This document shows positions 8,173 through 59,236 of a DNA stretch of 64,000 nt, piece after piece. Below the pieces are notes generated by a model. It was given only the letters and a program-made list of their open reading frames with translations, was not told where the DNA came from and searched no databases. The translations under genes were made by a program, and so were the position numbers. Origin of the DNA: Escherichia coli (GTDB lineage: Bacteria > Pseudomonadota > Gammaproteobacteria > Enterobacterales > Enterobacteriaceae); assembly GCF_003019035.1 (NCBI RefSeq), contig NZ_CP027447.1. One strand, written 5' to 3'. How positions within the stretch are numbered: the stretch's first letter is position 1; each line of letters begins with the position of its first letter.

Positions 8173-8199
8173 CACAGTAGCATCAGTTTTCTCAATGAA

Positions 8200-8220
8200 T
8201 GTTAAACGGAGCTTAAACTC
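8200..8220 (-). promoter_or_regulatory. PhoP box-like direct repeat (AGTTTA-n5-CGTTTA) for mgrR
   Basis: Minus strand reads GAGTTTAAGCTCCGTTTAAC; hexamer repeats spaced 11 bp apart, overlapping the 3' end of dgcZ. Confidence 0.45.
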
Positions 8221-9103
8221 GGTGAATCACGTTTTGTTCGTCAATAAACATACAGCGATTTCTTCCGGTTTGCTTACCCTCATACATTGCCCGGTCCGCT
8301 CTTCCAATGACCACATCCAGAGGCTCTTCAGGAAATGCGCGACTCACACCAGCAGTCACGGTAATGTTGATATGCCCTTCAGAATGTGTGATGGCATGGT
8401 TATCGACTAACTGGCAAATTCTGACACCTGCACGACATGCTTCTTCATCATTAGCCGCTTTGACAATAATGATAAATTCTTCGCCACCGTAGCGATAAAC
8501 CGTTTCGTAATCGCGCGTCCAACTGGCTAAGTAAGTTGCCAGGGTGCGTAATACTACATCGCCGATAAAATGCCCGTAGGTATCATTAACCAATTTAAAT
8601 CGGTCAATATCCAACAACATTAAATAAAGATTCAGAGGATCAGCGTTGCGTAACTGATGATCAAAGGATTCATCAAGAACCCGACGCCCCGGCAATCCCG
8701 TCAGAACATCCATATTGCTACGGATCGTCAGCAAATAAATTTTGTAATCGGTTAATGCCGCAGTAAAAGAAAGCAACCCTTCCTGAAAAGCGTCGAAATG
8801 CGCGTCCTGCCAGTGATTTTCAACAATAGCCAGCATTAATTCCCGACCACAGTTATGCATATGTTGATGGGCAGAATCCATTAGCCGAACGTAAGGTAAT
8901 TCATCGTTATCGAGTGGCCCCAGATGATCAATCCACCGACCAAACTGGCACAGTCCATAAGAATGGTTATCCGTTATTTCTGGCTTACTGGCATCTCTCG
9001 CGACCACGCTGTGAAACATACTTACCAGCCACTGGTAGTGGGCATCGATAGCCTTATTGAGATTTAACAAGATGGCATCAATTTCCGTTGTCTTCTTGAT
9101 CAT
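8213..9103 (-). CDS. dgcZ: Zinc-regulated diguanylate cyclase DgcZ (YdeH), CZB sensor plus GGDEF
   Basis: Sequence from MIKKTTEIDAILLNLNKAIDAHYQW matches recalled DgcZ; RYGGEEF active-site motif present; 296 aa from the MIKKTT start. Confidence 0.9.
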   Translation of the reverse strand: MIKKTTEIDAILLNLNKAIDAHYQWLVSMFHSVVARDASKPEITDNHSYGLCQFGRWIDHLGPLDNDELPYVRLMDSAHQHMHNCGRELMLAIVENHWQDAHFDAFQEGLLSFTAALTDYKIYLLTIRSNMDVLTGLPGRRVLDESFDHQLRNADPLNLYLMLLDIDRFKLVNDTYGHFIGDVVLRTLATYLASWTRDYETVYRYGGEEFIIIVKAANDEEACRAGVRICQLVDNHAITHSEGHINITVTAGVSRAFPEEPLDVVIGRADRAMYEGKQTGRNRCMFIDEQNVIHRV

Positions 9104-10115: not shown

Positions 10116-12161
10116 TTATACGTTCAAGCCACGATGTTGCAGCATCGGCATAATCTGAGGTGCCTTACCGCGCCATTGTCGATACAGGCGTTCCAGATCT
10201 TCGCTGTTACCTCTGGAAAGAATCGCCTCGCGAAAACGCAGCCCATTTTCACGCGTTAATCCGCCCTGCTCAACAAACCACTGATAACCATCATCGGCCA
10301 ACATTTGCGTCCACAGATAAGCGTAATAACCCGCGGCATATCCGCCACCAAAAATATGGGCGAAATAACTGCTGCGATAGCGTGGCGGTATAGCGGGAAG
10401 ATCCATATTTTCCGCCACCAGCGCCCGCAATTCGAAATCATCGACATCCTGCATTGCTTCGTTTTCTTCCAGGCAATGCCAGCGCATATCGAGAAGTGCG
10501 GCGCTAAGCAGTTCGCTCATCTCATACCCTTTATTGAACAGGCTGGCATTACGCATTTTCTGTTGCAGTTCGTCAGGCATCGCTGCCCCGCTCTGATAAT
10601 GCCGGGCGTAGCGAGCGAATACCTGCGGATGCGTTGCCCAGTGTTCGTTGATTTGCGACGGAAATTCGACAAAATCACGCGGCGTGTTGGTGCCGGAAAG
10701 CGTGGCATAACGCTGGCAGGCAAACAGGCCGTGCAGCGTATGACCAAATTCATGGAATAAGGTTATTACATCATCCCAGAGTAACAACGCAGGCTCCCCA
10801 GCAGCGGGTTTCTGATAATTGCAGACGTTATAAATTACCGGGTGCGTTTCATTCAGCGTTGATTGCTCAACAAAATTGCCCATCCATGCGCCGCCGCTTT
10901 TTGAATCACGGGCGAAGAAATCACCGTAAAATAACGCCAGCCCCACGCCATTATGATCAAAAATTTCCCACACCCGAACGTCAGGATGGTAGACAGGAAT
11001 ATCAAAACGTTCGACAAACTTAATACCGAAGAGCTGATTCGCGGTCCAGAATACACCTTCATTCAACACCGTGTTTAATTCAAAATATGGCTTGAGCTGC
11101 GACTCATCGAGATCGAATTTCTCACGTCTTACCTGCTCGGCATAAAATGCCCAGTCCCACGGCTGCGCGCTAAACCCGCCCTGCTGCTTATCGATAACCG
11201 CCTGTATGGAGGCTAATTCATCGCTTGCACGTTGACGCGCCGCTGGAACAATTTCCCGCATAAAGTTGAGTGCTGCTTCAGGTGTTTTTGCCATCTGATC
11301 GGCGATTTTCCATGCGGCATAATGAGGAAAACCAAGTAATGTTGCCTGTTGTGCACGGATCTCCACCAGACGTTGAATGATAGCGCGGGTATCATTGGCA
11401 TCATTTTTTTCCGCTCGCGTCCAGCCCGCAATAAACAGTTTTTCACGCGTCGCACGATCGCGCAGTTCAGCAAGCGCTGGTTGCTGGGTGGTATTCAGCA
11501 GCGGAATCAGCCATTTGTTATCCAGACCTTTCTCGCGAGCCGCCTCTGCCGCCAGCGCAATCTCTTGCTCACTCATTCCTGCCAGCTGCGCGATATCGTT
11601 CACAACCAGACCGCCGGATTTATTTGCTGCCAGTAACCGCTGGTTAAACTGGCTGGTCAGGGTCGCAGCTTCTGTATTCAGTACTTTTAATTTTGCTTTA
11701 TCAGCTTGCTTAAGTTTGGCTCCGGCAAGGACAAAACGTTGATGAATCACCTCCACCAGGCGGATGGATTCACTATCAAGCCCCAGGGATTCACGGCGCT
11801 GCCAGACAGCATCTACCCGCGCGAATAATTCCCCGTTCAGATAGATATCATTCGCAAGTTCCGCCAGTTCAGCGGAAAACTGTTCATCAAGACGCTGTAA
11901 TTCATCATTGGTATGCGCCGCAGTCATCGCAAAAAAGACGCTGGTAACGCGGGTAAGTAATTCTCCGCTTTGTTCCAGTGCCAGAATAGTATTGTTGAAA
12001 TCAGGCGTTTGCGGGTTAAGCGCGATGGCAGTAATTTCTGCCCGCTTTTGCAGCATTCCCTCATCGAATGCCGGGCGATAGTGATGATTGGCAATTTGAT
12101 CAAAATGGGGAGCCAGATACGGCAGTGTGCTTTGCACAAGGAAAGGATTCATTGTTGTCAT
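10116..12161 (-). CDS. dcp: Dipeptidyl carboxypeptidase II (M3 family zinc peptidase)
   Basis: ORF 10116..12227; from MTTMNPFLVQSTLPYLAPHF the protein matches recalled Dcp (681 aa); HEFGH zinc motif present. Confidence 0.9.
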   Translation of the reverse strand: MTTMNPFLVQSTLPYLAPHFDQIANHHYRPAFDEGMLQKRAEITAIALNPQTPDFNNTILALEQSGELLTRVTSVFFAMTAAHTNDELQRLDEQFSAELAELANDIYLNGELFARVDAVWQRRESLGLDSESIRLVEVIHQRFVLAGAKLKQADKAKLKVLNTEAATLTSQFNQRLLAANKSGGLVVNDIAQLAGMSEQEIALAAEAAREKGLDNKWLIPLLNTTQQPALAELRDRATREKLFIAGWTRAEKNDANDTRAIIQRLVEIRAQQATLLGFPHYAAWKIADQMAKTPEAALNFMREIVPAARQRASDELASIQAVIDKQQGGFSAQPWDWAFYAEQVRREKFDLDESQLKPYFELNTVLNEGVFWTANQLFGIKFVERFDIPVYHPDVRVWEIFDHNGVGLALFYGDFFARDSKSGGAWMGNFVEQSTLNETHPVIYNVCNYQKPAAGEPALLLWDDVITLFHEFGHTLHGLFACQRYATLSGTNTPRDFVEFPSQINEHWATHPQVFARYARHYQSGAAMPDELQQKMRNASLFNKGYEMSELLSAALLDMRWHCLEENEAMQDVDDFELRALVAENMDLPAIPPRYRSSYFAHIFGGGYAAGYYAYLWTQMLADDGYQWFVEQGGLTRENGLRFREAILSRGNSEDLERLYRQWRGKAPQIMPMLQHRGLNV

Positions 12162-43184: not shown

Positions 43185-43455
43185 GATGTTACCGTAGTAT
43201 GTGAGTATCCATCGAATAGACACCAAGCAAAAAAGCTCCCGAAGGAGCCTTCATTTTCACTTTTTTAAATCCAACGACAGACGGCTGGCATTTAAGTATT
43301 GTGAAATATTATCAAATGTAATCATCATTGATTTACAAAAGATACATTTTGCCCCGAAAGGATTCATGTCAGAAACATCAAAAGATGATGTTCTATACTG
43401 GGAACCATGACAACACGGGCATCTAAAGTGAATATGGTTTGTAATATTGTCTACC

Positions 43456-43668
43456 TCAAAGCGCCACTACATGAACAGCGGCAGGACCTTTAGGTCCGTT
43501 CTCAATACCAAATTCAACTTCCTGATTCTCAGTTAATGTTTTGAAATCGTTGCTCTGAATTGCTGAGAAATGGACAAACACATCTTTGCTGCCATCTTTC
43601 GGCGTGATGAAACCAAAACCTTTTTCAGGGTTAAACCATTTCACTAAACCAGTCATTTTGTTAGACAT
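43456..43668 (-). CDS. cspI: Cold shock protein CspI
   Basis: 70 aa CspA-family protein with RNP motifs KGFGFI and VFVHF; matches recalled CspI. Confidence 0.85.
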
Positions 43669-44030
43669 AATTATTACCTTTTGAAGAAATTAGCCCTTGG
43701 GCAGAATGGTCCGAAAAAAAATATCAGAGAGAAAAACCAACAAGGAAATCTCAAGAGGTACAAATAATAAAATTATAACAATGACTGCTTCAGATAAATT
43801 TGTAACAAACCAGAACACCATTAACGCATGATTAACCACCCATAGCAAGGATTACTTTTGTAAAGAAAAACACAGCAATGAAAGAATAGCTTTATTTATT
43901 AATAAAACGTGTCATTCTGATTAAGACCTTTTATCTTACCCTTAAGATTTCAGGAATTTTGGCTCATGGAAGAGTCCTTTTTATTTAAATTTTACATTCC
44001 GCGATGTAAATGTTCCGATTTAATATTACC

Positions 44031-46052: not shown

Positions 46053-46339
46053 GGGTTTGAGATTGTGGTGCTTTTTGTGGGAGTCATCCACTTACGCACT
46101 TTGTTTTGCCATGCCAGCAGTTAGCTTCTGCTGTAAAACTATTCATGCAGCAAACCTGCACTTCACCACAATGGTTAGCATACTTTTCCTGATTAAGATT
46201 TTGCCAAATATGCTAGCCATTGTTTCATGTATTGGACCTCCTTACTTTTTATTAAAGAGATCCAATATTCACTACTCTGTCCGTATCTCTACTCAGGCAT
46301 CAGCCTTCTTCGTTATCGTATACAGACGAGCGATGAATT

Positions 46340-46555
46340 TTAATCAGTAATGATGACATTTGCTGCTGCAGGACCTTTAGCACCACTCTCTATAGAGAAG
46401 GTAACCTTTTGACCTTCAAATAAGGTTCGATAATTATCATTCTGAATCGCAGAAAAATGCACAAACACATCTTTACTACCATCAACAGGAGAAATAAAGC
46501 CGAAACCTTTATCAGCGTTAAACCATTTTACTAAACCAGTCATTTTATTTGACAT
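46340..46555 (-). CDS. cspB: Cold shock protein CspB
   Basis: 71 aa CspA-family protein; matches recalled CspB. Confidence 0.85.
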
Positions 46556-46855
46556 TCTACATTCCTTAACTTGAGCCTTTCGGCATAAATGGTTTGCATA
46601 ACAGAAACGACTTCGTACTTAATTGGAGAGACTCAAAGAAGGAATAAGTGAATAACACCTGAAATGAGAACTGCTTTAGTAAACTACTTCGTATATCGTC
46701 TGTTCTTCAAACCGACGCAATCATTAACGCATAGTTGAACATATGAAGCAATGTTTATTTTAGACATCCAGCCATCTTCAACCCCATCAAAAAACTATAG
46801 CTTTCTTCAGGAACGTGTGTATAGTGCGCCAAGTTATCAGTATTAAGGAATTTTT

Positions 46856-47068
46856 TTGTCCCGTAAAATGACAGGAATTGTCAAAACCTTTGACGGCAAA
46901 AGCGGCAAGGGTCTTATCACCCCATCCGATGGTCGTATCGATGTCCAGCTTCATGTTTCAGCGCTCAATCTCCGCGATGCAGAAGAAATTACCACCGGAT
47001 TACGCGTGGAATTTTGCCGGATAAATGGTCTGCGTGGCCCTTCAGCTGCCAATGTTTACCTTTCATGA
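46856..47068 (+). CDS. cspF: Cold shock-like protein CspF
   Basis: 70 aa; [27 protein letters not shown]...; the CspF/CspH type lacking the canonical RNP1 motif. Confidence 0.85.
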
Positions 47069-47362
47069 GCTATATTAAAGCTTTAATTTCAGGCCCCATC
47101 GGATCACACATGGAGAGTTTTTATGAATAACCCCGTCTGTCTTGATGACTGGTTGATTGGCTTTAAAAGCTTATGCTGTACTTTGGCCGTAATAGCTCTG
47201 CTAATAATATAATAAGCAGACTCATTGTGTTTAGGGACATTGTACTGGAAGAAAACATTTTAAACATCAGGCAAATAACCAAGTCACCAGCTAAATAATA
47301 AGTTAACAGACATGAGTCCCGGGATGAGATTCAACATTACCATTGCCCCATTTAAAGCACAA

Positions 47363-47489
47363 AACCCGCTCATCAGCGGGTTTTCTACTTTTTCTTAACG
47401 TCGGGTATACAAAGCCCATCGTTGAAAAAATTTTATCCATATTTTTTGAAAAATGCAAACATCATGTCGCCATCTTCAGCAAAAATCAT
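47363..47489 (-). promoter_or_regulatory. Candidate late promoter / qut / tR' terminator region downstream of Q
   Basis: Position analogous to lambda PR'-qut-tR'; minus-strand hairpin aaacccgctgatgagcggg with a T-run at about 47363-47392. Confidence 0.3.
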
Positions 47490-48242
47490 TTATCTCGTCA
47501 CCTTCCTCAATTGCGCTTCCGCGTATGCTTCTTCCTGCCAGCACTTTGTTACCAGTTTACCAATGACGTCCGCATACCCCTTATACCACTGATAATCGGT
47601 CAGGTCTGGTACCAGCTTCTGGACATGACGTCGTGCCAGCGTGGTCGGTAAACGACTAAACCGGTTTCCATTACAACGCCCACAAATCTTATATACCGGT
47701 ACGCCATGAAACCGGGTTCTTTTTTCATCCAGAACAATCCCTTTACCCTTACACCCTCTGCACGCTGTGCTGGCTTCGCCCTTACCATGGCAATGCTGAC
47801 ATAGTTCCTTCACCCATTCTTCCTTGATTACAGATTCCCCGCGTCTGTAGTGTTTCACCACTTCGCGCAATACATTATAAAATCCCGTACCTGAACAATG
47901 CTCACAGCGAGCCTTACTTGCCGCAGACCTGGAGTAATCAGCAAAGGCAAAACTCACGAGGTAAGGAATAATCTGTAACCGGATTTCTTCACTCAATTTG
48001 TTCAATGTCGGGTTATCCAGTGCCATCGCGTAATTTAGCAGGCCTTCAATCGCAAACTGAGGGTCCTGAACACCAACTTTTGCCAGAAATAAGGCCAACC
48101 CAAGTGGTGCTTTCGACTGCACCATCCCCTGCGCTGCCATTACATCCGTAATTGTTAAACAACCGGTGCCTGTCGCTGGAGCGTCATCGCTCAATTTTGG
48201 AGATTTTGGGGAGTAATATTTTGGTAAGGCTTCAAGGTTCAT
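47490..48242 (-). CDS. quuQ: Late gene antiterminator Q (QuuQ)
   Basis: ORF 47490..48272; from MNLEALPKYYSPKSPKLS the 250 aa protein matches recalled QuuQ; multiple CxxC zinc motifs. Confidence 0.85.
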   Translation of the reverse strand: MNLEALPKYYSPKSPKLSDDAPATGTGCLTITDVMAAQGMVQSKAPLGLALFLAKVGVQDPQFAIEGLLNYAMALDNPTLNKLSEEIRLQIIPYLVSFAFADYSRSAASKARCEHCSGTGFYNVLREVVKHYRRGESVIKEEWVKELCQHCHGKGEASTACRGCKGKGIVLDEKRTRFHGVPVYKICGRCNGNRFSRLPTTLARRHVQKLVPDLTDYQWYKGYADVIGKLVTKCWQEEAYAEAQLRKVTR

Positions 48243-48255
48243 GCTCGTTCTCCAC

Positions 48256-49344
48256 TTACGCCAGTACGCCAATTGTCAGCGCGCGATCGATAAAACGAAA
48301 TATCAGCTCCAGTTGGGAGCCATACTTATCTTCAAATGCCACTGTATCCGTATGCAGCTCGTTGTGATGCTTTCTGCACAAAGGCAACACAAAGAGATCA
48401 TGTGCTTTTGTTCCCATTCCGCCCTGCCCGTGACCAATCAGATGATGCGGATCGTCGGCTGGCATACCGCAGCAAGCACACGGCTGTGTCTTAACCCAAC
48501 GTGTGTATTTCTCCTTAACCCAGCGGCGACGTTTAGGCAGCTTCATGAAAGATTCCGGAGACTCTGGATCAACGGTGATGCTTACCACCGTCTTTTCCTG
48601 TGGTGATTTTTGTTGCTGGTGGGCGTAAGGCAACGGTGCAAGATTTTTTGTGCGTTGTTTCAATATGCTGGTGGCGGTCTGCTCTCCCGGTACGATGTCG
48701 CTTTCGCGGTACACCGAGCAGATTTTTTCCGCTGGTAATCCCAGCGAACGACGCGATACAGCCTCAGGTAGTGCATCCACCACCTGATTGCAGACCGCCC
48801 ACCAGGATAATTCAGCCAAAGATAATTCCCGCTCCTGCGTACCGCTTATTGCGTGACGGATGACGTCAATCACCCATGCTGTCAGATTTTGTTGAGCAAG
48901 CAGCTCCAGTGATTCCGATGTCTGGTCACGCAGTTGGTTGTCGCAGTGCCAGCACAACACCATTGCGCCGGTACCATAACGGTGAATGACTGTTTCAGTG
49001 TGATGGTAATCGCCATTAGGCCACTGGCAGGATGTAACATGACGTAATAGCCAGTCAGACAATGCGCCAACGCCGCCAGCAGCACGAATCACCCGTTCGT
49101 TACTAAAAAACGGCAGCAATGTTTTGTCTTCCGCCAGCGGCTGGCGAACGGCAGGAACGACTCCGGATGGCAGATTACGCATGCTTTTTGGTTCCGGTTC
49201 CACCAGCACTCGAGGATTATGAAATATCTGTATGGATTCACGGCCCGGCTTAAGGACCACCAGCCCAAGCTCAGGCACCAGAACAGGTCTAAGTAATACC
49301 CGCACGTTACCTCCAGATCCGTTGCTGGAAAGTGCGGGACGCAC
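48256..49344 (-). CDS. ydfU: Prophage protein YdfU (DUF968)
   Basis: 362 aa ORF; C-terminal CACCGMPADDPHHLIGHGQGGMGTKAHD cysteine/histidine cluster; start uncertain (overlaps the upstream 92 aa ORF). Confidence 0.7.
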   Translation of the reverse strand: MRPALSSNGSGGNVRVLLRPVLVPELGLVVLKPGRESIQIFHNPRVLVEPEPKSMRNLPSGVVPAVRQPLAEDKTLLPFFSNERVIRAAGGVGALSDWLLRHVTSCQWPNGDYHHTETVIHRYGTGAMVLCWHCDNQLRDQTSESLELLAQQNLTAWVIDVIRHAISGTQERELSLAELSWWAVCNQVVDALPEAVSRRSLGLPAEKICSVYRESDIVPGEQTATSILKQRTKNLAPLPYAHQQQKSPQEKTVVSITVDPESPESFMKLPKRRRWVKEKYTRWVKTQPCACCGMPADDPHHLIGHGQGGMGTKAHDLFVLPLCRKHHNELHTDTVAFEDKYGSQLELIFRFIDRALTIGVLA

Positions 49345-49585
49345 GTGGTGGGCGTTCGGAATAAGGCAGCCTGACAGAGATTATCCAGTGCCGATAGTCG
49401 AGACTGAGAGCTTTCTTAACCTCGAACCCGCGCCTGCGGTAAGAATGAATCAGCCATTCGGCCTGTTCTGCAGTGCATGGAGGGTGCTGGAACCATTCAG
49501 ACTTGAATGCGTGAGAATACCGCCCGTGCGTGCAGGCAAGAACGGGCGAATTATCAGAATTGTAATATTTTGCGTTGCGTGCCAT
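49307..49585 (-). CDS. Hypothetical protein overlapping the 5' end of ydfU
   Basis: 92 aa ORF in a different frame overlapping the first 13 codons of the ydfU ORF; could be a genuine small gene or the out-of-frame N-terminus of a longer DUF968 protein. Confidence 0.3.
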   Translation of the reverse strand: MARNAKYYNSDNSPVLACTHGRYSHAFKSEWFQHPPCTAEQAEWLIHSYRRRGFEVKKALSLDYRHWIISVRLPYSERPPRASRTFQQRIWR

Positions 49586-49651
49586 CGGTTTTCTCCGGTG
49601 GCACGGTGTTACTCAGCGGGAGTTCAGCCCCGCGCAAGATTGTAGATGAGT

Positions 49652-49903
49652 TTATTCTCCTGAAAAAGCAGAAAAGCCAGCTTTTATTCCGATCTCTTTC
49701 AATGCCTGTAATGAAGTGACAAACTCACCTTCGCGCAAGATAAATCCGTCCGTGACCCGAGCATCCACAAAATTAATTAACGCAGCCCCATTCTTTCGCA
49801 AACACATAATGCGGTAATGACTAACAAGATTTCCATTTTCAACGCACACAGCATAGAGGCCATCTTCACAAAAAATTTTACGCAGTTCTTCGATGTTCAT
49901 CAT
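49652..49903 (-). CDS. rem: Rem-like prophage protein (83 aa)
   Basis: 83 aa ORF located between ydfU and hokD, the position and length I recall for K-12 rem; assignment by position and length only. Confidence 0.45.
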   Translation of the reverse strand: MMNIEELRKIFCEDGLYAVCVENGNLVSHYRIMCLRKNGAALINFVDARVTDGFILREGEFVTSLQALKEIGIKAGFSAFSGE

Positions 49904-50019
49904 CAGAATCCTTCCGGATAATTAGCTCTCCCCTTTAAGGGACCATCCCTCTTATCCCTGCGCGCTACTTAAGTATTTTTGATTCTATTCCGGCACCGTC
50001 CAGAACTTCAAACGCGTTG

Positions 50020-50050
50020 AAAATAAAAACAAAAACCCGCCGAAGCGGGT
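50020..50050 (-). terminator. Rho-independent terminator after the relB-relE-hokD operon
   Basis: Minus strand acccgcttcggcgggt hairpin followed by tttttgtttttatttt. Confidence 0.5.
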
Positions 50051-50119
50051 TAAGTGCGGGTGCGTTGAGGATGCCTGCCACATCAGAGGTGGCGAGGGAT
50101 TTCTCCCCCGCCGGGTCTC

Positions 50120-50275
50120 TTACTCCTCAGGTTCGTAAGCTGTGAAGACAGCGACCTCCGTCTGGCCGGTTCGGATTCGTACCTCGCAGAGGTCTTTCCT
50201 CGTTACCAGTGCCGTCACTATGACGGTTAAACAGATGACGATCAGGGCGATTAACATCGCCTTTTGCTGCTTCAT
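50120..50275 (-). CDS. hokD: Hok-family type I toxin HokD (RelF)
   Basis: Hand-translated 51 aa: MKQQKAMLIALIVICLTVIVTALVTRKDLCEVRIRTGQTEVAVFTAYEPEE; absent from the ORF track because it is shorter than 60 aa. Confidence 0.85.
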   Translation of the reverse strand: MKQQKAMLIALIVICLTVIVTALVTRKDLCEVRIRTGQTEVAVFTAYEPEE

Positions 50276-50346
50276 AGCCTGCTTCTCCTGTCAACGCAAA
50301 GCAGAAGTGTCACCTTCGGTGCGAAACAGAGATGTCATGCTTTGGT

Positions 50347-50634
50347 TCAGAGAATGCGTTTGACCGCCTCGCTATATACTTCCGAGCGTTCTCTTTTCCC
50401 AACAGAAATCACGAAAACGACAACTTTCTCGTCTATAACCTGGTATACAAGGCGATAGCCTGAAGACCGGAGCTTAATCTTGTAACAATCAGGCATACCA
50501 CGGAGCTTGTTTGCTTCAATCCGGGGTGACTCAAGTACTTCAACCAGCTTCTTTTTCAACTGTTCACGTACCGTCGAGCCCAGCTTTCGCCATTCCTTTA
50601 GTGCCCGCTCGTCAAAATCCAGAAAATACGCCAT
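50347..50634 (-). CDS. relE: Type II toxin RelE (mRNA interferase)
   Basis: 95 aa; matches recalled RelE. Confidence 0.9.
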   Translation of the reverse strand: MAYFLDFDERALKEWRKLGSTVREQLKKKLVEVLESPRIEANKLRGMPDCYKIKLRSSGYRLVYQVIDEKVVVFVISVGKRERSEVYSEAVKRIL

Positions 50635-50873
50635 CAGAGTTCATCCAGCGTCACACGTACTGGCTTAGGATTACGAAGCCGTTCTTTCACTATCTCCACA
50701 AGTTCAGCATCTTCATCACTCAGGAGTGTCTGTTTGAACGGCAAGCGTTCATTGTCAGCGATATACTCGAGCATGAGACGAAGCGCTTCAGAAGGAGTTA
50801 CACCCATTTTTTCAAGCGCGGCGTAAGAACGCGCTTTAAGTTCATCGTCAATACGCAGGTTAATGCTACCCAT
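50634..50873 (-). CDS. relB: Type II antitoxin RelB
   Basis: 79 aa; matches recalled RelB; stop overlaps the relE start. Confidence 0.9.
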   Translation of the reverse strand: MGSINLRIDDELKARSYAALEKMGVTPSEALRLMLEYIADNERLPFKQTLLSDEDAELVEIVKERLRNPKPVRVTLDEL

Positions 50874-50879
50874 GTCTTA

Positions 50880-50915
50880 CACCTCTTGTAATTACAAATG
50901 TCATTACAAGTATCG
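50880..50915 (-). promoter_or_regulatory. relBE promoter/operator (relO-like inverted repeats)
   Basis: cttgtaattacaaatgtcattacaag immediately upstream of relB contains the palindromic TTGTAAT/ATTACAA half-sites. Confidence 0.55.
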
Positions 50916-51203
50916 CACTACAACATGCTTAGGGCAAGTCACGAAGGAAGTCAGAAAGTAGTCGTAAGAACGGTGATCACTGTCCGCTTTGTGCCAGGAG
51001 CAGCCATTGCTAAGTCCATCCTGTATTGTGCAGGTCAGCTCGTTTTTAAAGAGTCCGGCCATCATCTTACTGGTACAGACACCATATACTTTGTGACGGT
51101 CAGGCTACATATGCACAACTCAACTTATTCATCTATTTTTTGCTTTAGCATGTCAGTGTTGCTTTCTCGTCGGCGGGTGAGCGGTGACCTGACCTGTCGA
51201 TAA
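50898..51203 (+). CDS. ydfV: Hypothetical protein (ydfV-like position)
   Basis: 101 aa ORF divergent from relB; assignment by position and length only; start overlaps the relO region, so the real start may be internal. Confidence 0.35.
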   Translation: MSLQVSHYNMLRASHEGSQKVVVRTVITVRFVPGAAIAKSILYCAGQLVFKESGHHLTGTDTIYFVTVRLHMHNSTYSSIFCFSMSVLLSRRRVSGDLTCR

Positions 51204-51405
51204 AGGAACGTAACACGTTTTATGCAACACCCGCATGCGGCAGAAAATTATTGCCGAACGTTTACCCCTGTCAACAAGCTTTACTTTCTGAGGCGCGCCA
51301 GCCCGCGAGGAAAACAATCTGAACATCAAACAATTAATGACACAAGAAATACGATTAAAGATTTTTTTGTGCATGCCGATAGTGCTTTTTTAAAAGGAGA
51401 AATCT

Positions 51406-51738
51406 ATGTCTGTCACAATTCAGGGAAATACCTCAACCGTTATTTCAAACAACTCCGCCCCGGAAGGAACATCAGAAATAGCCAAAATCACAAGACAAAT
51501 TCAGGTGCTGACTGAAAAGCTTGGGAAAATCTCATCGGAAGAGGGGATGACGACACAGCAGAAAAAAGAAATGGCTGCATTGGTACAGAAGCAAATTGAA
51601 AGCCTCTGGGCTCAACTGGAGCAGTTGTTAAGGCAGCAGGCAGAGAAAAAGAATGAAGACGCGACAGTTCAGCCTGATAAAAAAGAAGAGAAAAAAGACG
51701 ATACAAATACCGCTGGCACCATTGATATTTACGTCTAA
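51406..51738 (+). CDS. flxA: FlxA (FliA-regulated prophage protein)
   Basis: 110 aa; MSVTIQGNTSTVISNNSAPEGTSEIAKITRQIQVLTEKLGK... matches recalled FlxA. Confidence 0.85.
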   Translation: MSVTIQGNTSTVISNNSAPEGTSEIAKITRQIQVLTEKLGKISSEEGMTTQQKKEMAALVQKQIESLWAQLEQLLRQQAEKKNEDATVQPDKKEEKKDDTNTAGTIDIYV

Positions 51739-51752
51739 GTGACAGCCGTATT

Positions 51753-51776
51753 GTGGCCCTCATCGGGCCACTTTTC
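51753..51776 (+). terminator. Rho-independent terminator after flxA
   Basis: gtggccc tcatc gggccac hairpin followed by ttttcg. Confidence 0.5.
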
Positions 51777-51825
51777 GCCATCAGCCTTTTCTTTAAAGAC
51801 ATATTATCTTTGTATCATTTCTGAT

Positions 51826-53674
51826 AGTTAACATTACAAGATATAAGTAATGGACGCACTCCCAATTAGTCTATTTAAATCGCCACGAGTTTAACTGACA
51901 ACCCATGATCAATTATGAATTGCAACTATTTCTGTAGTCACTTTTGTGGGGACAGTCCACAAAACTGCCAACTTCCGCTTCTTGCTCTTAGCGGACATTA
52001 GCATAGGCTATTTACCATAACGCCTCATTACGCGCACCGCCCAGACTGACTCAGCGCGTTTCTGGCATATCCCCGGTAAAACAAGTAACAAACCACCCGA
52101 AAATGAACACCAGAAACGCGACTTAAGAATCTACCCTATGAATGGATATGCACTCAACCGAATCGATCTTGGTTTCAATCTTTTTTATCGGGATCAGGCT
52201 TCTTTTTAGGTAACTTCGGGGGCTTAACTTGCTGATGACTTTGCGTTCGGCGCGTAAGCCAGGGATGGTCAGCTTTAGGTTTAACATAGTATTTTGAGCG
52301 TAAATCAATACGGGCATTATCCACTCGTTCATGGACACTCTTTTCATCATCCAGTGGTATAGGCTCCGGGCCATCAACATACTTTTCCCAGCCCAGCGCT
52401 TTCCCGTCATACAGAACGTTAATTTCACCGTCAAAGTTCTCGCATACAGTAACAACCGAATGCCTAAGTCGATATCCCCGGCCCTCACTGCGTACCTGAA
52501 ACGCACTGCTTTTGTACTGGAAAGTGAGATTTTTAGACAGAACGCGCTTCGCCTGTAGGCTGAAGATATAACCCAGTTCCTCTTCAGAATGGTGCACATC
52601 AAGATGAGCATTATCAGTAGTACGAGGCGACGTAGCGAACCGGTTGTTATAGGCTTCAATAAAGGTCGGCAACCATGCATTTGCTGTTTCAATATCACTG
52701 ATATTCTGAAGCCGCATTTCTTTGACCAGCCTGTCCTGTAGTGTCTGATTGGCGCGCTCTACCCGCCCTTTTGCCTGCGGGCTGTTGGCATGGATTGGCT
52801 CGATGCCCAGTGTCTTTATCGCACGAGTGAACTGGGTCAGCTCACCTTCCCGCTCTGGGTTATTTACCCTGAATATACTGTGTCTATCAGAGTAGAGAGC
52901 GAGCGGTACGCCATGATCATTAAGGTAACCCCGGAGGGTTTCCATGTAAGCCCGGGTTGTTTCAGCAGGCACAAAACGCAACGCCATCAACGCACTGGTG
53001 GCATCATCAATGAAAACGATCAGTGTACATCTGGGGCCTCGATTTTCAAACCAGTCATGAGGTGAGCCATCAATCTGGATCAGTTCACCGTAAGATGGTC
53101 GTCGCATGCGGCGTTGATATATACGGGCAATTTTACGACGGCGTTCACGCCATAACCCCTCTTCTATCATCCACTTTCTGAGAGTTTCAACGGATAAAGA
53201 TAAACCGTGTATCTCGCGCAATTTTTCGCACGCAAACGTAGGTCCAAAATCAGCGTAACGGCCTTTGAGGAGTGAAATTACTGTTGCTCTGAATTCAGTA
53301 GAAAAGGAATTATTAGGACGCTTTCCACGTCGGTGGGAAACCAGACCAGAAGGCCCTTCATTTCTATACCGTTGCACCAGACGTTTAACCTGCCGAATAG
53401 AAATGCCAATGCGTGCCGCAGCTTGTTCCTGAATAATCTGAAGTCGGTGGAGTTCCTTATGACTCATCGTAACAGTCTCTTTGATCATGAAAAATCCCCC
53501 AGAGAATTGTCTGGGGACATTTTAGAATGGTTCAAAGGGGACATTACAGCTTGGTGTTAACAATAGCCTGCTTCTCCGTGCCTTTCGGCACGTAAGAGGC
53601 TAACCTACATGTGTCTAGCATGAAATTGGCCTCAGATTAATGTTAAGCGTCTTGCAGGACGCGTAATGTTAACT
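51826..53674. mobile_element. Insertion sequence (family uncertain, IS481/ISNCY-like); boundaries tentative
   Basis: Single 437 aa DDE transposase ORF flanked by a 12-bp perfect inverted repeat agttaacattac (51826-51837) / gtaatgttaact (53663-53674); no clear target-site duplication seen. Confidence 0.35.
52175..53488 (-). CDS. DDE transposase with N-terminal HTH and rve-type integrase core
   Basis: 437 aa; HTH near N-terminus (IGISIRQVKRLVQRY); catalytic-triad candidates in IQIDGS, YSDRHSIF and KGRVERANQTL. Confidence 0.8.
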   Translation of the reverse strand: MIKETVTMSHKELHRLQIIQEQAAARIGISIRQVKRLVQRYRNEGPSGLVSHRRGKRPNNSFSTEFRATVISLLKGRYADFGPTFACEKLREIHGLSLSVETLRKWMIEEGLWRERRRKIARIYQRRMRRPSYGELIQIDGSPHDWFENRGPRCTLIVFIDDATSALMALRFVPAETTRAYMETLRGYLNDHGVPLALYSDRHSIFRVNNPEREGELTQFTRAIKTLGIEPIHANSPQAKGRVERANQTLQDRLVKEMRLQNISDIETANAWLPTFIEAYNNRFATSPRTTDNAHLDVHHSEEELGYIFSLQAKRVLSKNLTFQYKSSAFQVRSEGRGYRLRHSVVTVCENFDGEINVLYDGKALGWEKYVDGPEPIPLDDEKSVHERVDNARIDLRSKYYVKPKADHPWLTRRTQSHQQVKPPKLPKKKPDPDKKD

Positions 53675-53822
53675 GGGGCTTTTCTCTATCTGCCGTTGGT
53701 GTCCATGCCCGAGGCAGATAGCCTCAAGCACCCGCAGTCATTCTACTTAACTAAGATTTCCCCGCAAACCGTTTTTGTCCAGCACAGTAAATATCCAACT
53801 AAACCAATGGAGTTCGCTGTAT

Positions 53823-54041
53823 TTACCGCCAGTATTCAATGCACATGACCGCCATGAACACCCCTAAAAAAAGGGCATTTATATATCCAAATATTAATAT
53901 CAAAACATCAACTTTTTCCATATACCTTGCTGTGAAGATGATGGGCATACATGATGCGAACAACCAGAACGCAACAAACAAAAACTGCAATGCGTTTTTC
54001 ATTATTCCTCCTACAATCAATGTGCAATTACATTTAAACAC
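53823..54041 (-). CDS. Hypothetical small membrane protein (two predicted TM helices)
   Basis: 72 aa ORF (likely start MKNALQFLFVAFWLFASCMPIIF...); AT-rich codon usage unlike the flanking phage genes. Confidence 0.4.
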   Translation of the reverse strand: MFKCNCTLIVGGIMKNALQFLFVAFWLFASCMPIIFTARYMEKVDVLILIFGYINALFLGVFMAVMCIEYWR

Positions 54042-54433
54042 ACCTCAATTTGGCCGGACATATAAATATCTAAACCAGAAAAAATCACTTACATAGCGTT
54101 ACAAACTCTTTAGTCTAAAGGTTCATCGTAAAACATTCCCCATACTTATCAGTCCGTTCCGCGCCAGGTAGCTCATTGCCTTATCTGGCAACCTGTAATC
54201 AGGTTTCCGCTTTTTCAGTTGGCTGGTCGTTTAACCGACATAGTTAATCCATTAATCTAGTTGCCGGATGTTGGTGGATTTTCGCGTTTTAGTTGTTCAT
54301 AAAAGTGCACAGCTTTAACCAGTTCTTCTGATGTAACTGGGACTGGTGAGGCAGTGAATAAGGCCTGAATTTGATAGTTCGGCCTGTCGTTACAATCCTC
54401 TTTTTTCGGTACATATTTCCAGTCACCAGACCA

Positions 54434-54892
54434 CTACTTCCCCTGAAAGTCCGTAACGCCTTTTTTCACGTAGCGATATCGCCATGCCACTGGTTTTGCT
54501 TGCCCCGCCGTTTCATGCCCTTCCTGATAATTAATCTCGCTCATTCATCGCCCCACTCATCACAATATGCTTCGACCGGAGTTTTTCCCGCTTCATAGTC
54601 ATCACGCTAGGATTCGACATCAGCAGCACTTCCACCGCGTAACTCACCATAGTCCATTAATAGTTCATCCCGCTCTTCAAAACTGATGTTATATTTAGCT
54701 GAACAAAAATCAGCCACTTTGTTCTTCCTCATCGTCTTTTATTTCGTGGTATGAGTAATTGCAGTAGTTAAAGAAAATTTCTTATGCTCCGTCATGAATT
54801 TCCTCAGGTGTTGCGTCATCGTCCACTTCGAATACATCCTCAAAATCTCCACCAGCTATTCCCGTTTCAATAATAATTTTGAACTTTCGCAT
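54434..54892 (-). other. Cluster of tiny overlapping ORFs (23-41 aa) in shifting frames; probably decayed gene(s)
   Basis: Hand translation gives 36, 41, 23 and 36 aa ORFs at 54782-54892, 54607-54732, 54531-54602 and 54434-54544; an alternative frame across the second gap reads protein-like DDYEAGKTPVEAYCDEWGDE; SD sequences are weak. Confidence 0.3.
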
Positions 54893-55154
54893 TTCACTAC
54901 CGCCCTTTCGGGCGGCCTCCTGATGTTCTGAGGGTGCAGAAATCCATCCGGTTAAGGATTAAATTTTATTTACAGAACTGAATTTAATTATTCAGATATA
55001 CGTATCTGTAGCCTTACGAATCTACTCACTGGATGCCTCTTTCATAAAAATAATCCAGTGGGTTTTATCGTTTTTTCCCTGTTCGTTGACAGATAACAGG
55101 TTTTCTGTCTGTCAGTGCCAGAATCTGGCTTACCGGTATTTGCGTTTCATTCCA

Positions 55155-55511
55155 TTAAAAAATCAGAACGCCGTGCGGCCTCAACACCCGAAAGGCTTCT
55201 TTAAATCTCTGTCGCGAATCATCACGCCAGGCATCTTTATTCAGCCGTCCATATTTCTTTCCCATCCAGGCGTTATCACCAACACTCTCAAGATGCGGAG
55301 GGTCTAATACAACCATCGAAAAAGATGCGTCTGCAAATGATAATGCACGAAAATCTGCGATAATGTCAGGGCTGATAATCAAGCGTCTCCCATTGCGTAA
55401 TGTGTATCCTTCTTTTCTGATATCGCTGAATATCGCCCGTTCGTCAGACTTATCGAACCAGAACATGCGGCTGCCACAGCACATATCAAGAATGGTTGCC
55501 GGTGCACTCAC
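55155..55511 (-). CDS. SAM-dependent methyltransferase-like protein (motif I and DPPH motif IV), possibly truncated
   Basis: 118 aa; ILDMCCGSR resembles SAM-binding motif I and VVLDPPH resembles the D/N-PP-Y/F/H motif IV of amino-methyltransferases; too short for a complete DNA MTase. Confidence 0.45.
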   Translation of the reverse strand: MSAPATILDMCCGSRMFWFDKSDERAIFSDIRKEGYTLRNGRRLIISPDIIADFRALSFADASFSMVVLDPPHLESVGDNAWMGKKYGRLNKDAWRDDSRQRFKEAFRVLRPHGVLIF

Positions 55512-55930
55512 TGCGCCACGTCCTGAAAATTACCCTGATAGAAAGCCAGTATGCGCTGCATAACTTCGCTCTTCCGGCACTCGCGACAGATTATGTTTAG
55601 GCGACTGTCGTAGCGACGTATTTCTCCGTCAGGTGATGACCAGATAAGGTCCGGATCAACCACAGCAGGTTTCTTCACCTTTGCCCTCGAGAGTTTTTTG
55701 CGGGCGTTTTGCCAGTCCTTACGCGCCTGTTCAGAGGGGAATAACCCGTAGCCGGAGTTGTATACATCGCCACTGGCTACCAGCTCTCTGGCAAGAACGC
55801 TCATCAGATATCTAGTCGCACCTGTTTTAGCTTCCAGTTGCCGTAACGTCTCACGGCCGCTCTGGCGCACGAGTTCCACCACCTGCCATTTAATTTTTTC
55901 CCGCTCTTCTTGTGTAAAAACTTTTGCCAC
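55508..55930 (-). CDS. Hypothetical protein (early-region, possible DNA-binding)
   Basis: 140 aa; basic; CRECR near C-terminus; stop overlaps the start of the methyltransferase-like ORF. Confidence 0.5.
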   Translation of the reverse strand: MAKVFTQEEREKIKWQVVELVRQSGRETLRQLEAKTGATRYLMSVLARELVASGDVYNSGYGLFPSEQARKDWQNARKKLSRAKVKKPAVVDPDLIWSSPDGEIRRYDSRLNIICRECRKSEVMQRILAFYQGNFQDVAQ

Positions 55931-55970
55931 AAGTCCCCCTTAAAATTACCTCATGACCTGAAATCAACAC

Positions 55971-56990
55971 TTATCCTCTGAAACCAGGCGGAATTTCTGT
56001 ATCCGGTTCAGAAATATGATTAACACAACGCTGTACAGGTGAACGTCCCAGGCGGATGACCAGTTCGTCCCATTTTTCGCGGAGCTTTGACGGGCTCATG
56101 ATGTTTTTTACCCAGAATGGATCTCGCTGAACCCGACCAAACATTTCGCAAATTTGTCTGTGGCTTCTGCCATCCAGCATCCGCATTGTGCGCACGTCAT
56201 TGGCCCAGGCAGTCCAGTTAGGCTCTTTTGGTCGCATGATCTCGCCATCATCACTGGCTGCCTGTTCGTAGAGACCCACGATCCGCCCCCAGATCCACTG
56301 CGCACACGCCAAATCCTCCCTGCTACCCCACTGGCGTTTTTTCGCACTAAACACAACCGCGTCGGAGTTCCGGGTTAAAAAATCCTGTTCAGTCGTCTGC
56401 GGGTCCGGTTGCGAAGCTTCCGGACGAAAAGTGTTTTTATTCTCTGTAGTAATCTCTGTTGTATTCTCTGTAAGATCATCAGGCCATTTTGACCCGATGA
56501 CATTGGGTCGTTTTGAACCAATGGAGCGTTTCATTTTGACCTCTTCCATCGTGTCATTTTGACCTGATGGAGCGGCGCATTTTGAACCGATGGATTCGCT
56601 CAATTTGCCACCATCTAAAAGCTCGCTCCCATAGTTGATCGTGTAGAAATTGGTCATATCGCGCTTTGATTTATTGAGCTTTTCACAACGCAAAAGCCCC
56701 AGCGTTTTCAGACTTGCAAACGCGCGCTTTAACGTTGACTCTGACCAGAATGGGAACTGTTCCAGCCATTGTTCCGTTGTGTTATAAATCCAGCGAACAC
56801 CATCACATTCCATGCCGGAGTTGGTATCTCTCAACCAGTAGTGCAGTTGTTGCAAAACAATGGCTTCGTTTAAGCCAATTTTCATTGCCAGCTGCGTGTT
56901 TATAACCAGTGGGCGTTCAGCAAAAAGAAGGCTCATAATTCCATCCAGCTTTTTGTTGGTATTGCTGTCGATACGCAAGTTTGAAAGCAA
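55971..56990 (-). CDS. Putative replication initiation protein (replisome-organiser-like)
   Basis: 339 aa ORF in the position of lambda O, downstream of the cro-like dicC; N-terminal winged-helix-like segment; start may be the internal MSLLFAERPLV. Confidence 0.45.
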   Translation of the reverse strand: MLSNLRIDSNTNKKLDGIMSLLFAERPLVINTQLAMKIGLNEAIVLQQLHYWLRDTNSGMECDGVRWIYNTTEQWLEQFPFWSESTLKRAFASLKTLGLLRCEKLNKSKRDMTNFYTINYGSELLDGGKLSESIGSKCAAPSGQNDTMEEVKMKRSIGSKRPNVIGSKWPDDLTENTTEITTENKNTFRPEASQPDPQTTEQDFLTRNSDAVVFSAKKRQWGSREDLACAQWIWGRIVGLYEQAASDDGEIMRPKEPNWTAWANDVRTMRMLDGRSHRQICEMFGRVQRDPFWVKNIMSPSKLREKWDELVIRLGRSPVQRCVNHISEPDTEIPPGFRG

Positions 56991-57438
56991 TTGCTTTTTC
57001 TATAAGTTCGTCAGTTTCACGATCCACTACGGCAGGATCAGCAAAAAGCAGTCCGGACTCCACCACATCGCCATATTCTTTGTTTAACCCGGCGATCATG
57101 CACGTGATGCTTTTTCCGTCAGTAATTTCACGATACAACCTGAAATCATTAATCCGGATAGCCTCCATAATTGCAGGCACTAGCGCCGTGAACTTTTCAC
57201 GCTTATCCCTGGTGTCGATAGCCTTCCAGCGTTCAAATATCTTCACTCGATTAACGCCAAGCGCTCGCTGATCAATCGCGCCACCTTCATATGTGACACG
57301 CTGAACATCGATGTTCGGGCGCTCTTTCAAAGCCCAGAATGCTTCAGTGATTAATATCGTCGCCTGCTCCTGTGTCATTCCTGGTCGACATATCCAGGCA
57401 TCCAGAGCCTCACGAGCCTGTTCAGGAGTGATTTTCAT
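56917..57438 (-). CDS. Hypothetical protein directly downstream of dicC
   Basis: 173 aa ORF overlapping the dicC stop and the next ORF; no motif recognised. Confidence 0.45.
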   Translation of the reverse strand: MKITPEQAREALDAWICRPGMTQEQATILITEAFWALKERPNIDVQRVTYEGGAIDQRALGVNRVKIFERWKAIDTRDKREKFTALVPAIMEAIRINDFRLYREITDGKSITCMIAGLNKEYGDVVESGLLFADPAVVDRETDELIEKAIAFKLAYRQQYQQKAGWNYEPSFC

Positions 57439-59183: not shown

Positions 59184-59236
59184 TTTCTGGTGACGTTTGG
59201 CGGTATCAGTTTTACTCCGTGACTGCTCTGCCGCCC
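59184..59236 (+). ncRNA. dicF: DicF small RNA (ftsZ-targeting antisense sRNA)
   Basis: tttctggtgacgtttggcggtatcagttttactccgtgactgctctgccgccc followed by ttttt matches the 53-nt DicF sequence I recall. Confidence 0.85.

Follow-up and report, generated by a model that had tools for sequence, protein, structure and literature searches.

The relB-relE-hokD operon of an Escherichia coli Qin-type prophage as the probable junction of an ISEsa1-like transposon with a hok/sok locus

The relBE genes of Escherichia coli are a model type II toxin-antitoxin (TA) system, and since sequencing in the 1980s they have been known to be followed by a homologue of the type I toxin gene hok that lacks its sok antisense RNA gene. 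Why does hokD (relF) stand there? The question arises again in a stretch of 64,000 nucleotides from E. coli contig NZ_CP027447.1 (assembly GCF_003019035.1; "the window" below is this whole 64-kb stretch), where a first-pass annotation made from the sequence alone had marked positions 50020-50915 as a complete relB-relE-hokD operon. What was flagged is the relBEF operon, long familiar from the Qin prophage, and taken alone it is textbook K-12 biology. Its surroundings, which the window preserves, suggest an answer: relB-relE-hokD is very probably the right-hand junction of an IS1202-family, ISEsa1-like transposon with the hok/sok locus that it entered, a context that would explain why relBE has a sok-less hok homologue downstream. 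The operon and its signals are as follows.

50873..50634, minus strand: relB, 79 amino acids (aa), antitoxin and autorepressor; cargo in the conserved right arm of the transposon (open reading frame (ORF) list, Pfam, K-12 identity)
50634..50347, minus strand: relE, 95 aa, mRNA-interferase toxin; cargo in the conserved right arm (ORF list, Pfam)
50275..50120, minus strand: hokD (relF), 51 aa, intact; Hok-family membrane toxin gene (ORF list, Pfam)
50909-50937, minus strand: relBE promoter, TTGCCC-17 nt-GATACT, upstream of relB (read by eye, with K-12 identity)
50885-50910, minus strand: operator repeat CTTGTAATGACATTTGTAATTACAAG, between promoter and relB (sequence reading)
50051..50034, minus strand: GC-rich terminator hairpin AACCCGC-TTCG-GCGGGTT with a T-run (terminator scan)

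The three genes are intact, as had been claimed: the ORF list, Pfam and K-12 identity agree, hokD was re-read without a frameshift, and it is absent from the ORF track solely because its 51 aa fall short of the 60-aa cut-off. All three Pfam matches are well over the curated cut-offs (RelB, 112 bits; ParE_toxin, the RelE/ParE fold, 51 bits; HOK_GEF, 82.9 bits against a cut-off of 22). A RelB-family gene thus lies directly 5′ of a RelE/ParE-fold toxin gene and overlaps it by one base (at 50634), which is the arrangement of a type II relBE pair, and the HOK_GEF score places hokD in the Hok/Gef family. The RelB and RelE proteins are identical to their K-12 counterparts, and the hokD DNA is identical to K-12 hokD (WP_000813254.1). 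The alignment with the K-12 relBEF locus that had been proposed as a check gave 100% identity to K-12 MG1655, and to many other E. coli, over the 1,001 bases of 49950-50950; the RefSeq labels in the matching stretch of MG1655 are relB, relE, hokD and ydfV, and the stretch is present in about 1,161 of 5,426 complete E. coli genomes. Upstream of relB, the promoter and its palindromic operator have the form of an autoregulated unit, with RelB binding predicted; we take CTTGTAATGACATTTGTAATTACAAG to be relO, as the first-pass annotation had it, and its DNA is the same as in K-12. The consensus promoter scan, under its rules, returned no relBE promoter. The span first marked covers the operon but misses the -35 box (50932-50937). 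Downstream, the terminator that had been noted is present; it falls within the portion collinear with uninterrupted hokD loci, and it is the original hok mRNA 3′ end, now closing the relB-relE-hokD transcript.

The first indication that the operon is composite lies in the spacer between relE and hokD. Just before the hokD start stands a 15-mer, GGAGAAGCAGGCTAT. The 64-kb window contains it at only one other place, also on the minus strand, and the two copies bracket an element with a transposase gene.

50289..53562, minus strand: whole transposon, 3,274 bp, in the order left terminal inverted repeat (IRL), transposase, flxA, ydfV, relB, relE, right terminal inverted repeat (IRR)
53563..53577, minus strand: target-site duplication, leader side, GGAGAAGCAGGCTAT, exact 15-mer match
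50274..50288, minus strand: target-site duplication, hokD side, GGAGAAGCAGGCTAT, from the hok Shine-Dalgarno (SD) sequence through "AT" of ATG
53537..53562, minus strand: IRL, TGTTAACACCAAGCTGTAATGTCCCC
50289..50314, minus strand: IRR, GGTGACACTTCTGCTTTGCGTTGACA, identical in all loci examined
52175..53488, minus strand: transposase, 437 aa, IS1202 family (ISNCY group)

The transposase scores 456 bits against NCBIfam NF033594 (transpos_ISNCY_2, cut-off 250), which marks it as an IS1202 DDE-type enzyme, and it also carries Pfam helix-turn-helix (HTH) and rve_3 domains; it has about 42-48% amino-acid identity to ISKpn21/ISLad2-type copies. The IRL and IRR match in inverted orientation at 19 of 26 positions, and the IRR is the best inverted match to the IRL anywhere in the element. 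Imperfect repeats of about 24-26 bp are characteristic of IS1202, in which terminal repeats range from 15/22 to 25/25 (PMC10132070). The duplication is perfect, with 15 bp in the window and in at least 11 other cases and 16 bp in at least five; this length is near the 16-17-bp class of the family (classes of 3-5, 16-17 and 27-28 bp). Read in the hok orientation, the element runs from the IRL through a terminator-like hairpin, the transposase gene, flxA and ydfV (on the opposite strand), the relBE promoter, relB and relE to the IRR, which ends 54 nt downstream of the relE stop. The interior features are these.

51406..51738, plus strand: flxA, 110 aa, FlxA-like (Pfam FlxA, 53.8 bits); variable cargo, with other genes in its place in sister elements
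50898..51203, plus strand: ydfV, 101 aa, no family match; 5′ part within the conserved right arm
51958..51980, minus strand: weak inner inverted-repeat-like stretch, about 15/22 match, at the end of the conserved left arm, the homology of which stops at element positions 1589-1593
53496..53517, minus strand: terminator-like hairpin TCCCCAGACAATTCTCTGGGGG with ATTTTT, just inside the IRL and directly before the transposase ATG

If the 15-mer is a target-site duplication, the part of the hok locus that hokD lacks should lie beyond the other copy. It does. A scan of the whole window with Rfam placed the Sok/hok-leader family RF01794, matched over its full length, at 53562..53733 of the minus strand, with 104 bits (gathering score 59) and E=1.5e-22. 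RF01794 matches the hok sense strand, as can be seen at K-12 hokC, where its match lies opposite the annotated sokC.

53563..53733, minus strand: orphan hok mRNA leader, running from +1 and tac to the mok start, the Sok target and the old hok SD (Rfam, alignment with complete loci)
53722-53733, minus strand: tac-like element GGGTGCTTGAGG, at the start of the orphan leader
53544..53621, minus strand: truncated mok frame, 25 codons, running beyond the leader and stopping inside the IRL (ORF list)
53613..53686 (approximate), plus strand: putative Sok-like antisense RNA gene, start placed by homology with K-12 sokC
50058..50070, minus strand: fbi-like element CCTCAACGCACCC, in the hokD 3′ untranslated region (UTR)

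The orphan leader ends in GGCAC and GGAGAAGCAGGCTAT and is followed directly by TGTTAACACCAAGCTGTAATGTCCCC and the 437-aa ORF. In an uninterrupted locus the mok frame continues in frame into hokD as a 70-codon mok-hok ORF; here the mok start lies in the orphan leader and the frame stops within the IRL after 25 codons (plasmid counterparts of the truncated frame are often annotated DUF5431). The fbi-like element kept 3′ of hokD is complementary (12 bp, one bulge) to the tac-like element of the leader, on the far side of the transposon. The roles of tac and fbi are known from the hok gene of R1 (PMC9841398), and their complementarity across the element is expected if both once lay on one hok mRNA. 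The sokC annotation, the alignment and the sequence all point to the Sok-like gene, in which a long hairpin (53637-53672) followed by GGGGCTTTTCTCT is the presumed terminator; the consensus promoter scan returned no promoter for it. One base of the leader is of interest in this regard: at 53578 the window reads GGCAC before GGAG, against GGCAA in uninterrupted hokD loci and several metagenomic filled sites, a change that would convert the antisense -35 of the presumed Sok promoter from TTGCCT to GTGCCT and may weaken sok expression from the orphan leader.

These halves also settle what is missing beside hokD. The first-pass annotation had seen no sok-like antisense promoter, and a search of 48500-52500 for Sok and hok-leader RNA (RF01794) found none near hokD even at E<=10. 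(Sub-threshold Rfam matches to isrK, rsmX and P9 on the terminator hairpin in the same search were dismissed as chance.) Homology of hokD to complete hok loci (a plasmid hokD-like locus and K-12 hokC) starts only about 18 nt before the ATG, and at K-12 hokC the sokC start is 49 nt upstream of the hok ATG; no part of sok can therefore adjoin hokD. The Sok gene and its promoter are absent from the leader of the transcript that carries hokD, and the hok leader is separated from it by the transposon, at 53563-53733. Yet sok was not lost from the window: sok, the mok start, tac and the hok promoter all lie at 53563-53733, outside the span first marked. The operon is complete, then, in having three intact genes, but it is an incomplete unit for hokD and did not evolve as a three-gene operon.

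A more direct indication of insertion comes from genomes without the element. When the transposon and one copy of the repeat are removed in silico, a reconstructed site of 662 bp results; about 1,148 E. coli genomes carry it unbroken, with 99.1% identity from end to end. In strain CP53, for example, the uninterrupted locus has the 15-mer once, with 194 of 198 positions identical on the leader side and 259 of 260 on the hokD side, and its HokD protein has the same accession as that of K-12. Such precise empty sites, compared base by base, argue strongly that an insertion event took place at hokD.

The same unit has entered other hok loci. A 3.3-kb form recurs at 99.2-99.8% identity on plasmids of Enterobacter, Salmonella, Citrobacter and E. 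coli, where NCBI names the transposase "IS1202-like element ISEsa1 family transposase" and where an identical RelE (WP_000323025.1) is annotated in all copies. Junctions of these sister elements, extracted by script, are as follows.

Enterobacter IncF plasmid, in hok: 3,301 bp, duplication GGAGAAGAAGGCCAT (15 bp)
Salmonella IncI/K plasmid, next to trbA, in a pndA-type gene: 3,301 bp, duplication TGGAGGGGCTATGAT (15 bp)
Citrobacter IncFII plasmid: 4,600 bp, cytochrome b and cation-diffusion transporter cargo, duplication of 15 bp
Citrobacter IncFIB plasmid, next to psiA: 4,155 bp, other cargo, duplication of 16 bp
Klebsiella pSH12_Vir: 4,661 bp, duplication GGAGAAAAAGGCTAT (15 bp)
K. pneumoniae: 12,843 bp, ncrABCY, chrB and HupE-family cargo, duplication of 16 bp

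Each duplication is perfect and matches its local target, and every case has a leader with truncated mok, the IRL, the transposase, cargo, relB, relE, the IRR and an intact or once-intact hok-family gene; in five of the sister loci the RF01794 leader model ends exactly at the IRL. Reconstructed empty sites of the pndA and hok types are found at 100% identity over 500 bp (e.g., in ColIb-P9 and an E. ludwigii plasmid). Pairwise comparison shows two arms that are kept, a left one of about 1.6 kb and a right one of about 713 bp (the 5′ part of ydfV, relBE and the IRR), and an exchangeable middle; homology between cargo variants in the left arm ends at about 1,590-1,620 bp in element positions, beside the weak inverted-repeat-like site. 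The same arms thus stand at the same position in hokD-, hok- and pndA-type plasmid loci, with cargo that includes genes for resistance to nickel and chromate. These comparisons show directly the two ends, the duplication, the empty sites and the recurrence at one position with different cargo. A more distant relative of the transposase (80.7% identity, unannotated and probably a pseudogene) lies at 4853-6807 of C. amalonaticus pCIAM-1 (L010), with a diverged IRL that adjoins repeated GGTCCCAGTTGYGGTGTYGGGACC hairpins and not a hok leader; no IRR was found for it, and a different RelE/ParE pair follows on the opposite strand.

Could relB-relE-hokD nevertheless be a native, complete three-gene TA operon, in which hokD lost or never had sok and uses read-through? 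The genes are intact, adjacent and co-oriented, share one promoter and operator and one terminator, are annotated side by side in RefSeq, and their co-transcription is published (PMC3598666). As a description of present-day transcription this view stands. As an account of origin it is contradicted, and very unlikely: the relE-hokD spacer ends in a transposon inverted repeat and a duplicated 15-mer, the sok-bearing hok leader lies 3.27 kb away, the same hokD follows its own leader, without relBE, in more than 1,100 genomes, and this relBE arm also stands in front of hok genes of three other kinds.

It could also be asked whether the mobile unit is only the left arm, with relBE, ydfV and flxA as ordinary neighbours and the distal IRR a chance match. 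The literature gives this idea its starting point, since ISEsa1 is listed at 1,609 bp (PMC10132070), and the left-arm homology does end at about 1,590-1,620 bp beside a weak inverted-repeat-like site. The survey found no duplication for a 1.6-kb unit, however; perfect duplications of 15-16 bp flank the unit from the IRL to the distal IRR in every complete case, that IRR is the best inverted match to the IRL in the element, and the precise empty sites drop the whole 3.3 kb. A mobile unit confined to the left arm thus has little chance of being right.

If the element is this plain, why was it not seen in K-12? The two genomes match at 99.9% over 46950-52359, and the match resumes from 57159; K-12 MG1655 lacks 52360-57158. 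About 3.4 kb of prophage early genes went in the deletion, as did the orphan leader and its sok, the IRL and the 5′ three-quarters of the transposase gene, of which the 49-aa ydfW is left as a remnant of the C-terminus. Because of this deletion, the transposon structure is hidden in the usual reference; about 511 genomes keep the transposase-plus-leader side. The 4.8 kb of 52360-57158 also hold lambdoid early-region ORFs (339 aa and replication-protein-like, 140 aa, 118 aa and 173 aa), and the K-12 scar is bordered by ydfW and ydfX.

The K-12 deletion also bears on a proposal that is implied by the work of Ramisetty's group, namely that relBE entered hokD as a minimal TA cassette (a promoter and two ORFs) by illegitimate or otherwise unexplained recombination. 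Integration of plasmid-derived relBE has been described as shortening an ancestral 70-codon hokD ORF (PMC6379469), and horizontally moving TA units have been described as a promoter and ORFs without a terminator (PMC5120126). But the insert is 3,274 bp and not about 0.6 kb, it has inverted repeats, a transposase and a perfect 15-bp duplication, and units of 3.3-12.8 kb with the same ends have matching duplications elsewhere; K-12, in which the 5′ part of the transposase gene, the IRL and the leader were deleted, simply hides this. Entry as a minimal cassette is accordingly most improbable.

How closely is the element tied to hok? A census based on an exact-match scan of metagenome contigs for the IRL gave 45 loci with 44 usable junctions. 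In 36 of the 44 the neighbour is a hok leader, and at least 10 leader/duplication variants are represented; two abut an end of the insertion sequence (IS) ISKpn28 that itself lies against a hok SD, and one is a tandem IRR-duplication-IRL arrangement. Where both ends are on the contig, the duplication is 15 bp (8 cases) or 16 bp (3 cases), and it always starts directly after the last leader hairpin (...GCCGNAAGGCA followed by A or C). The start point is kept even where the sequence that follows is of the pndA type, with its GGAG one base out of register, or is the first 11 nt of an ISKpn28 end. Such a pattern suggests that recognition is of the upstream hairpin/GGAG context and not of the start codon. 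The targets are the hok-leader hairpin and SD; inspection by eye, without a formal dif search, showed no dif-like 11-6-11 site among them. An IRR scan of species-representative genomes gave 6 loci only, of which 3 are hok-adjacent, 1 lies beside an inverted leader and 2 are other.

Some junctions have a more complex history. In Citrobacter portucalensis NZ_MVFY01000016.1 (L018, ~8739-8810) a hok leader end in reverse complement (ATGGCCTTCTTCTCCTTGCCTTACGGC...) comes after the IRR, an arrangement that would imply either that an inversion took place between two copies of the element or that transposition was intramolecular. In OLJC01000099.1 (L063, ~11690-11755) the IRR, the 15-bp duplication GGAGAAAAAGGCTAT and an IRL follow head to tail, giving two elements in tandem at one hok site, which suggests that the duplicated target beside the IRR can be hit again. 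An end of the IS481-like ISKpn28 (...CTGTGTGAACTTACACA) also repeatedly abuts a GGAG, either that of a hok gene or that in the transposon duplication (NZ_CP056374.1, L019; NZ_CP040834.1, L011; metagenome loci L032, L034, L035, L039, L040, L048, L050 and L060), and several ISEsa1-like duplications contain the first 11 nt of that end (GGAGT/TGTATGGGTCC). ISKpn28, an unrelated IS, thus seems to share with the transposon a target of a few bases in the hok initiation region. (A Klebsiella left flank considered as a new type of hok leader gave no Rfam match and is the end of IS481-like ISKpn28.)

A single ancient insertion spread by homologous recombination in hok flanks, without site-specific transposition, would fit the >99% identity of the elements, the presence of hok leaders and genes on many replicons, and the mosaic relBE-hok junctions with differing flanks, but it is hardly credible. 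Recombination would have moved the first duplication together with the element, or left two copies that differ. What is seen at every locus is a pair of identical repeats in keeping with the hok type there (at least five sequences, one of them the divergent pndA-type TGGAGGGGCTATGAT). For three types there are unoccupied sites identical to the reconstruction, and duplications with 11 nt of a neighbouring ISKpn28 end are explained only by fresh insertion.

In the transposon account, an element with a transposase at its left end, relBE beside the IRR and exchangeable cargo between (here flxA and ydfV) would have inserted in the hok orientation, immediately 3′ of the last leader hairpin, into the hok locus of a Qin-type prophage, duplicating 15 bp from the hok ribosome-binding site to the "AT" of the start codon. 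hokD would thereby keep its SD, ATG, coding region, fbi and terminator and be cut off from its own promoter, tac, mok and sok, now 3.27 kb upstream; tac and fbi would no longer share an mRNA. The only transcript of the gene would be the relBE mRNA under RelB/RelE autoregulation, in which hokD is the third cistron, and Sok would no longer have a target on it. RelB and RelE would repress at relO, and derepression would give one mRNA that runs through relB, relE, a 71-nt spacer, hokD and the old hok terminator. The spacer consists of the transposon end and the duplicated SD. This course of the transcript from relB to hokD is established for K-12: northern blots with relB, relE and relF probes detected one full-length relBEF mRNA, deletion of PrelBEF abolished its induction, and the relBEF 5′ end was also tested (PMC3598666). 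The published northerns, with a single relBEF mRNA from PrelBEF, likewise bear out the earlier suggestion that hokD depends on operon read-through (PMC3598666). From the sequence, Sok, if it is still made from the orphan leader, is unable to act on hokD.

Three further ideas about the junctions were considered. Wholly within the relE-hokD spacer, at the transposon right end, lies a 15-codon ORF, MTSLFRTEGDTSALR (50291-50338, minus strand), without a clear SD; its stop codon, the TGA of ...GCGTTGACA, precedes the hokD ATG by 13 nt. As a speculation, this ORF might replace mok for translational coupling to hokD. The possibility that the transposon right end acts as a tac mimic, pairing with fbi to hide the hokD SD, was dropped: the pairing is seen in a 319-nt minimum-energy fold, it is not found in the equivalent Enterobacter hok context, and a local 107-nt fold is no better than shuffles (z=-1.55). 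At the left end, transcription from the hok promoter into the transposase gene would put transposition under the control of Sok, an idea weakened by the terminator-like hairpin at 53496-53517, between the IRL and the transposase ATG, which would block read-in from the hok promoter.

A wider reading can be offered only tentatively, and it is more doubtful than not: that ISEsa1-type elements are an unrecognised class of site-specific transporters that home to hok initiation regions, disarm hok/sok and install relBE. Homing would probably be via the last leader hairpin and GGAG, by analogy with the dif-site homing of related elements. A function may lie behind the design, in that a 15-16-bp duplication would rebuild the hok ribosome-binding site and start codon. 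One insertion would then disarm the resident hok/sok system (leaving no promoter, mok or Sok target), install relBE and bring an intact Hok toxin under a RelB-repressed promoter as third cistron. If this were true, the archetypal relBE of K-12 would be a transposon passenger, and the same vehicle would move nickel, cobalt, chromate and cation-efflux genes between the plasmid leading regions of Klebsiella, Enterobacter, Citrobacter and Salmonella.

Several points weigh against the transposon account or limit its reach. First, mobility is deduced from comparative sequence, and the window copy may be inactive: its transposase is identical to that of the Enterobacter plasmid copy (437/437) save for a 9-aa gap (SINRHITQE), an in-frame 27-bp deletion in the N-terminal HTH region near residue 21. 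Both the 3,274-bp and the 3,301-bp forms are present at the same hokD site in metagenome contigs (L054 and L052, respectively). Second, 5 of the 44 IRL junctions (four of them distinct) have flanks unrelated to hok, as do 2 of the 6 IRR junctions in species-representative genomes, one of which is an IS903-like end; either targeting is not absolute or these sites were later rearranged. Third, the left arm alone may also move, given the weak inner inverted-repeat-like site (about 15/22). Fourth, the label ISEsa1-like comes from NCBI naming of plasmid orthologues and from the length of the left arm, and ISEsa1 in the literature is 1,609 bp with 15/22 terminal inverted repeats (TIRs) and no duplication (PMC10132070). 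Fifth, what the literature provides is co-transcription, and hokD may or may not be translated from the relBEF mRNA. Finally, part of the structure may already be in Pedersen & Gerdes 1999 or Ramisetty & Santhosh 2016, which were outside the reach of the literature search.

Within that reach, no paper was found that joins ISEsa1 with relE, relB or hok, and a 2026 preprint on Hok diversity does not mention the element. The integration itself is partly known: shortening of a 70-codon ancestral hokD by relBE has been stated (PMC6379469), and hokD has been described as inactivated "by genomic rearrangements" (PMC12214031). What appears new, as far as checked, is the vehicle, its true ends, the 15-16-bp duplication, the hok-site specificity and the variable cargo. 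The model type II system relBE would be recast as cargo of a target-specific transposon, and a vehicle would be identified for the entry of metal-resistance cargo into plasmid hok loci. Deletion phenotypes of relBE or relBEF in K-12, and plasmid "hokD" annotations beside relE, should be interpreted with the transposon structure in mind.

Elsewhere in the window, the Rfam scan matched DicF antisense RNA at 59185-59236 on the plus strand (RF00039, 77 bits), as expected in a Qin-type prophage, and the Hfq-binding small RNA STnc560 at 7988-8201 on the minus strand (RF01407, 282 bits). Two matches to the cspA thermoregulator (RF01766), at 43429-43814 and 46324-46716 on the minus strand (113 and 159 bits), are 5′ UTRs of cold-shock genes of the prophage; in K-12, cspF stands a short way upstream of this region.

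How does the locus compare with known systems? The closest is the Qin relBEF operon of K-12, with 100% identity over 49950-50950 and 99.9% over 46950-52359 and with the same promoter and operator, genes and terminator; the difference is the absence of 52360-57158 from K-12, so that the full structure is visible in the window and not there. Complete hok/sok loci (parB of R1, hokC/mokC/sokC of K-12, hokD of CP53) share the Hok toxin, the leader with tac, mok and Sok target, fbi and the terminator, but in the window the two halves are 3,274 bp apart and hokD has no promoter in cis, no mok coupling and no Sok target. Other chromosomal hok loci have also met insertion sequences: hokA, hokC and hokE of K-12, with IS150 or IS186 nearby (IS186 adjoins hokC), are regarded as inactivated (PMC12214031). 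There the IS lies beside the locus, whereas the window element stands at one exact nucleotide within the hok initiation region and recurs there across loci.

Among transposons, the IS1202-family elements ISAjo2, ISAba71, ISKpn21 and ISSen13 (PMC10132070) have the same transposase family and imperfect terminal repeats of about 26 bp. ISAjo2-type relatives also insert in one orientation at a fixed distance from a conserved short plasmid site, and some carry passenger genes. They lie 3-5 bp from the XerC side of dif/pdif sites and make 3-5-bp duplications; window-type elements instead use hok initiation regions, make 15-16-bp duplications, always have relBE beside the IRR and carry up to 10 kb of cargo. 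Hok initiation regions would thus join dif sites as homing targets of the IS1202 family. The 2023 survey of that family lists ISEsa1 itself, in a subgroup of its own and without mention of hok, at 1,609 bp with a 439-aa transposase, 15/22 TIRs and no target-site duplication detected (PMC10132070, Table 7). ISEsa1 as catalogued matches the left arm (element positions of about 1-1590, ~1.6 kb), whereas the duplicated unit spans the IRL to the distal IRR (3.3-12.8 kb); a revision of its catalogued boundaries, and of its reported lack of a duplication, is suggested.

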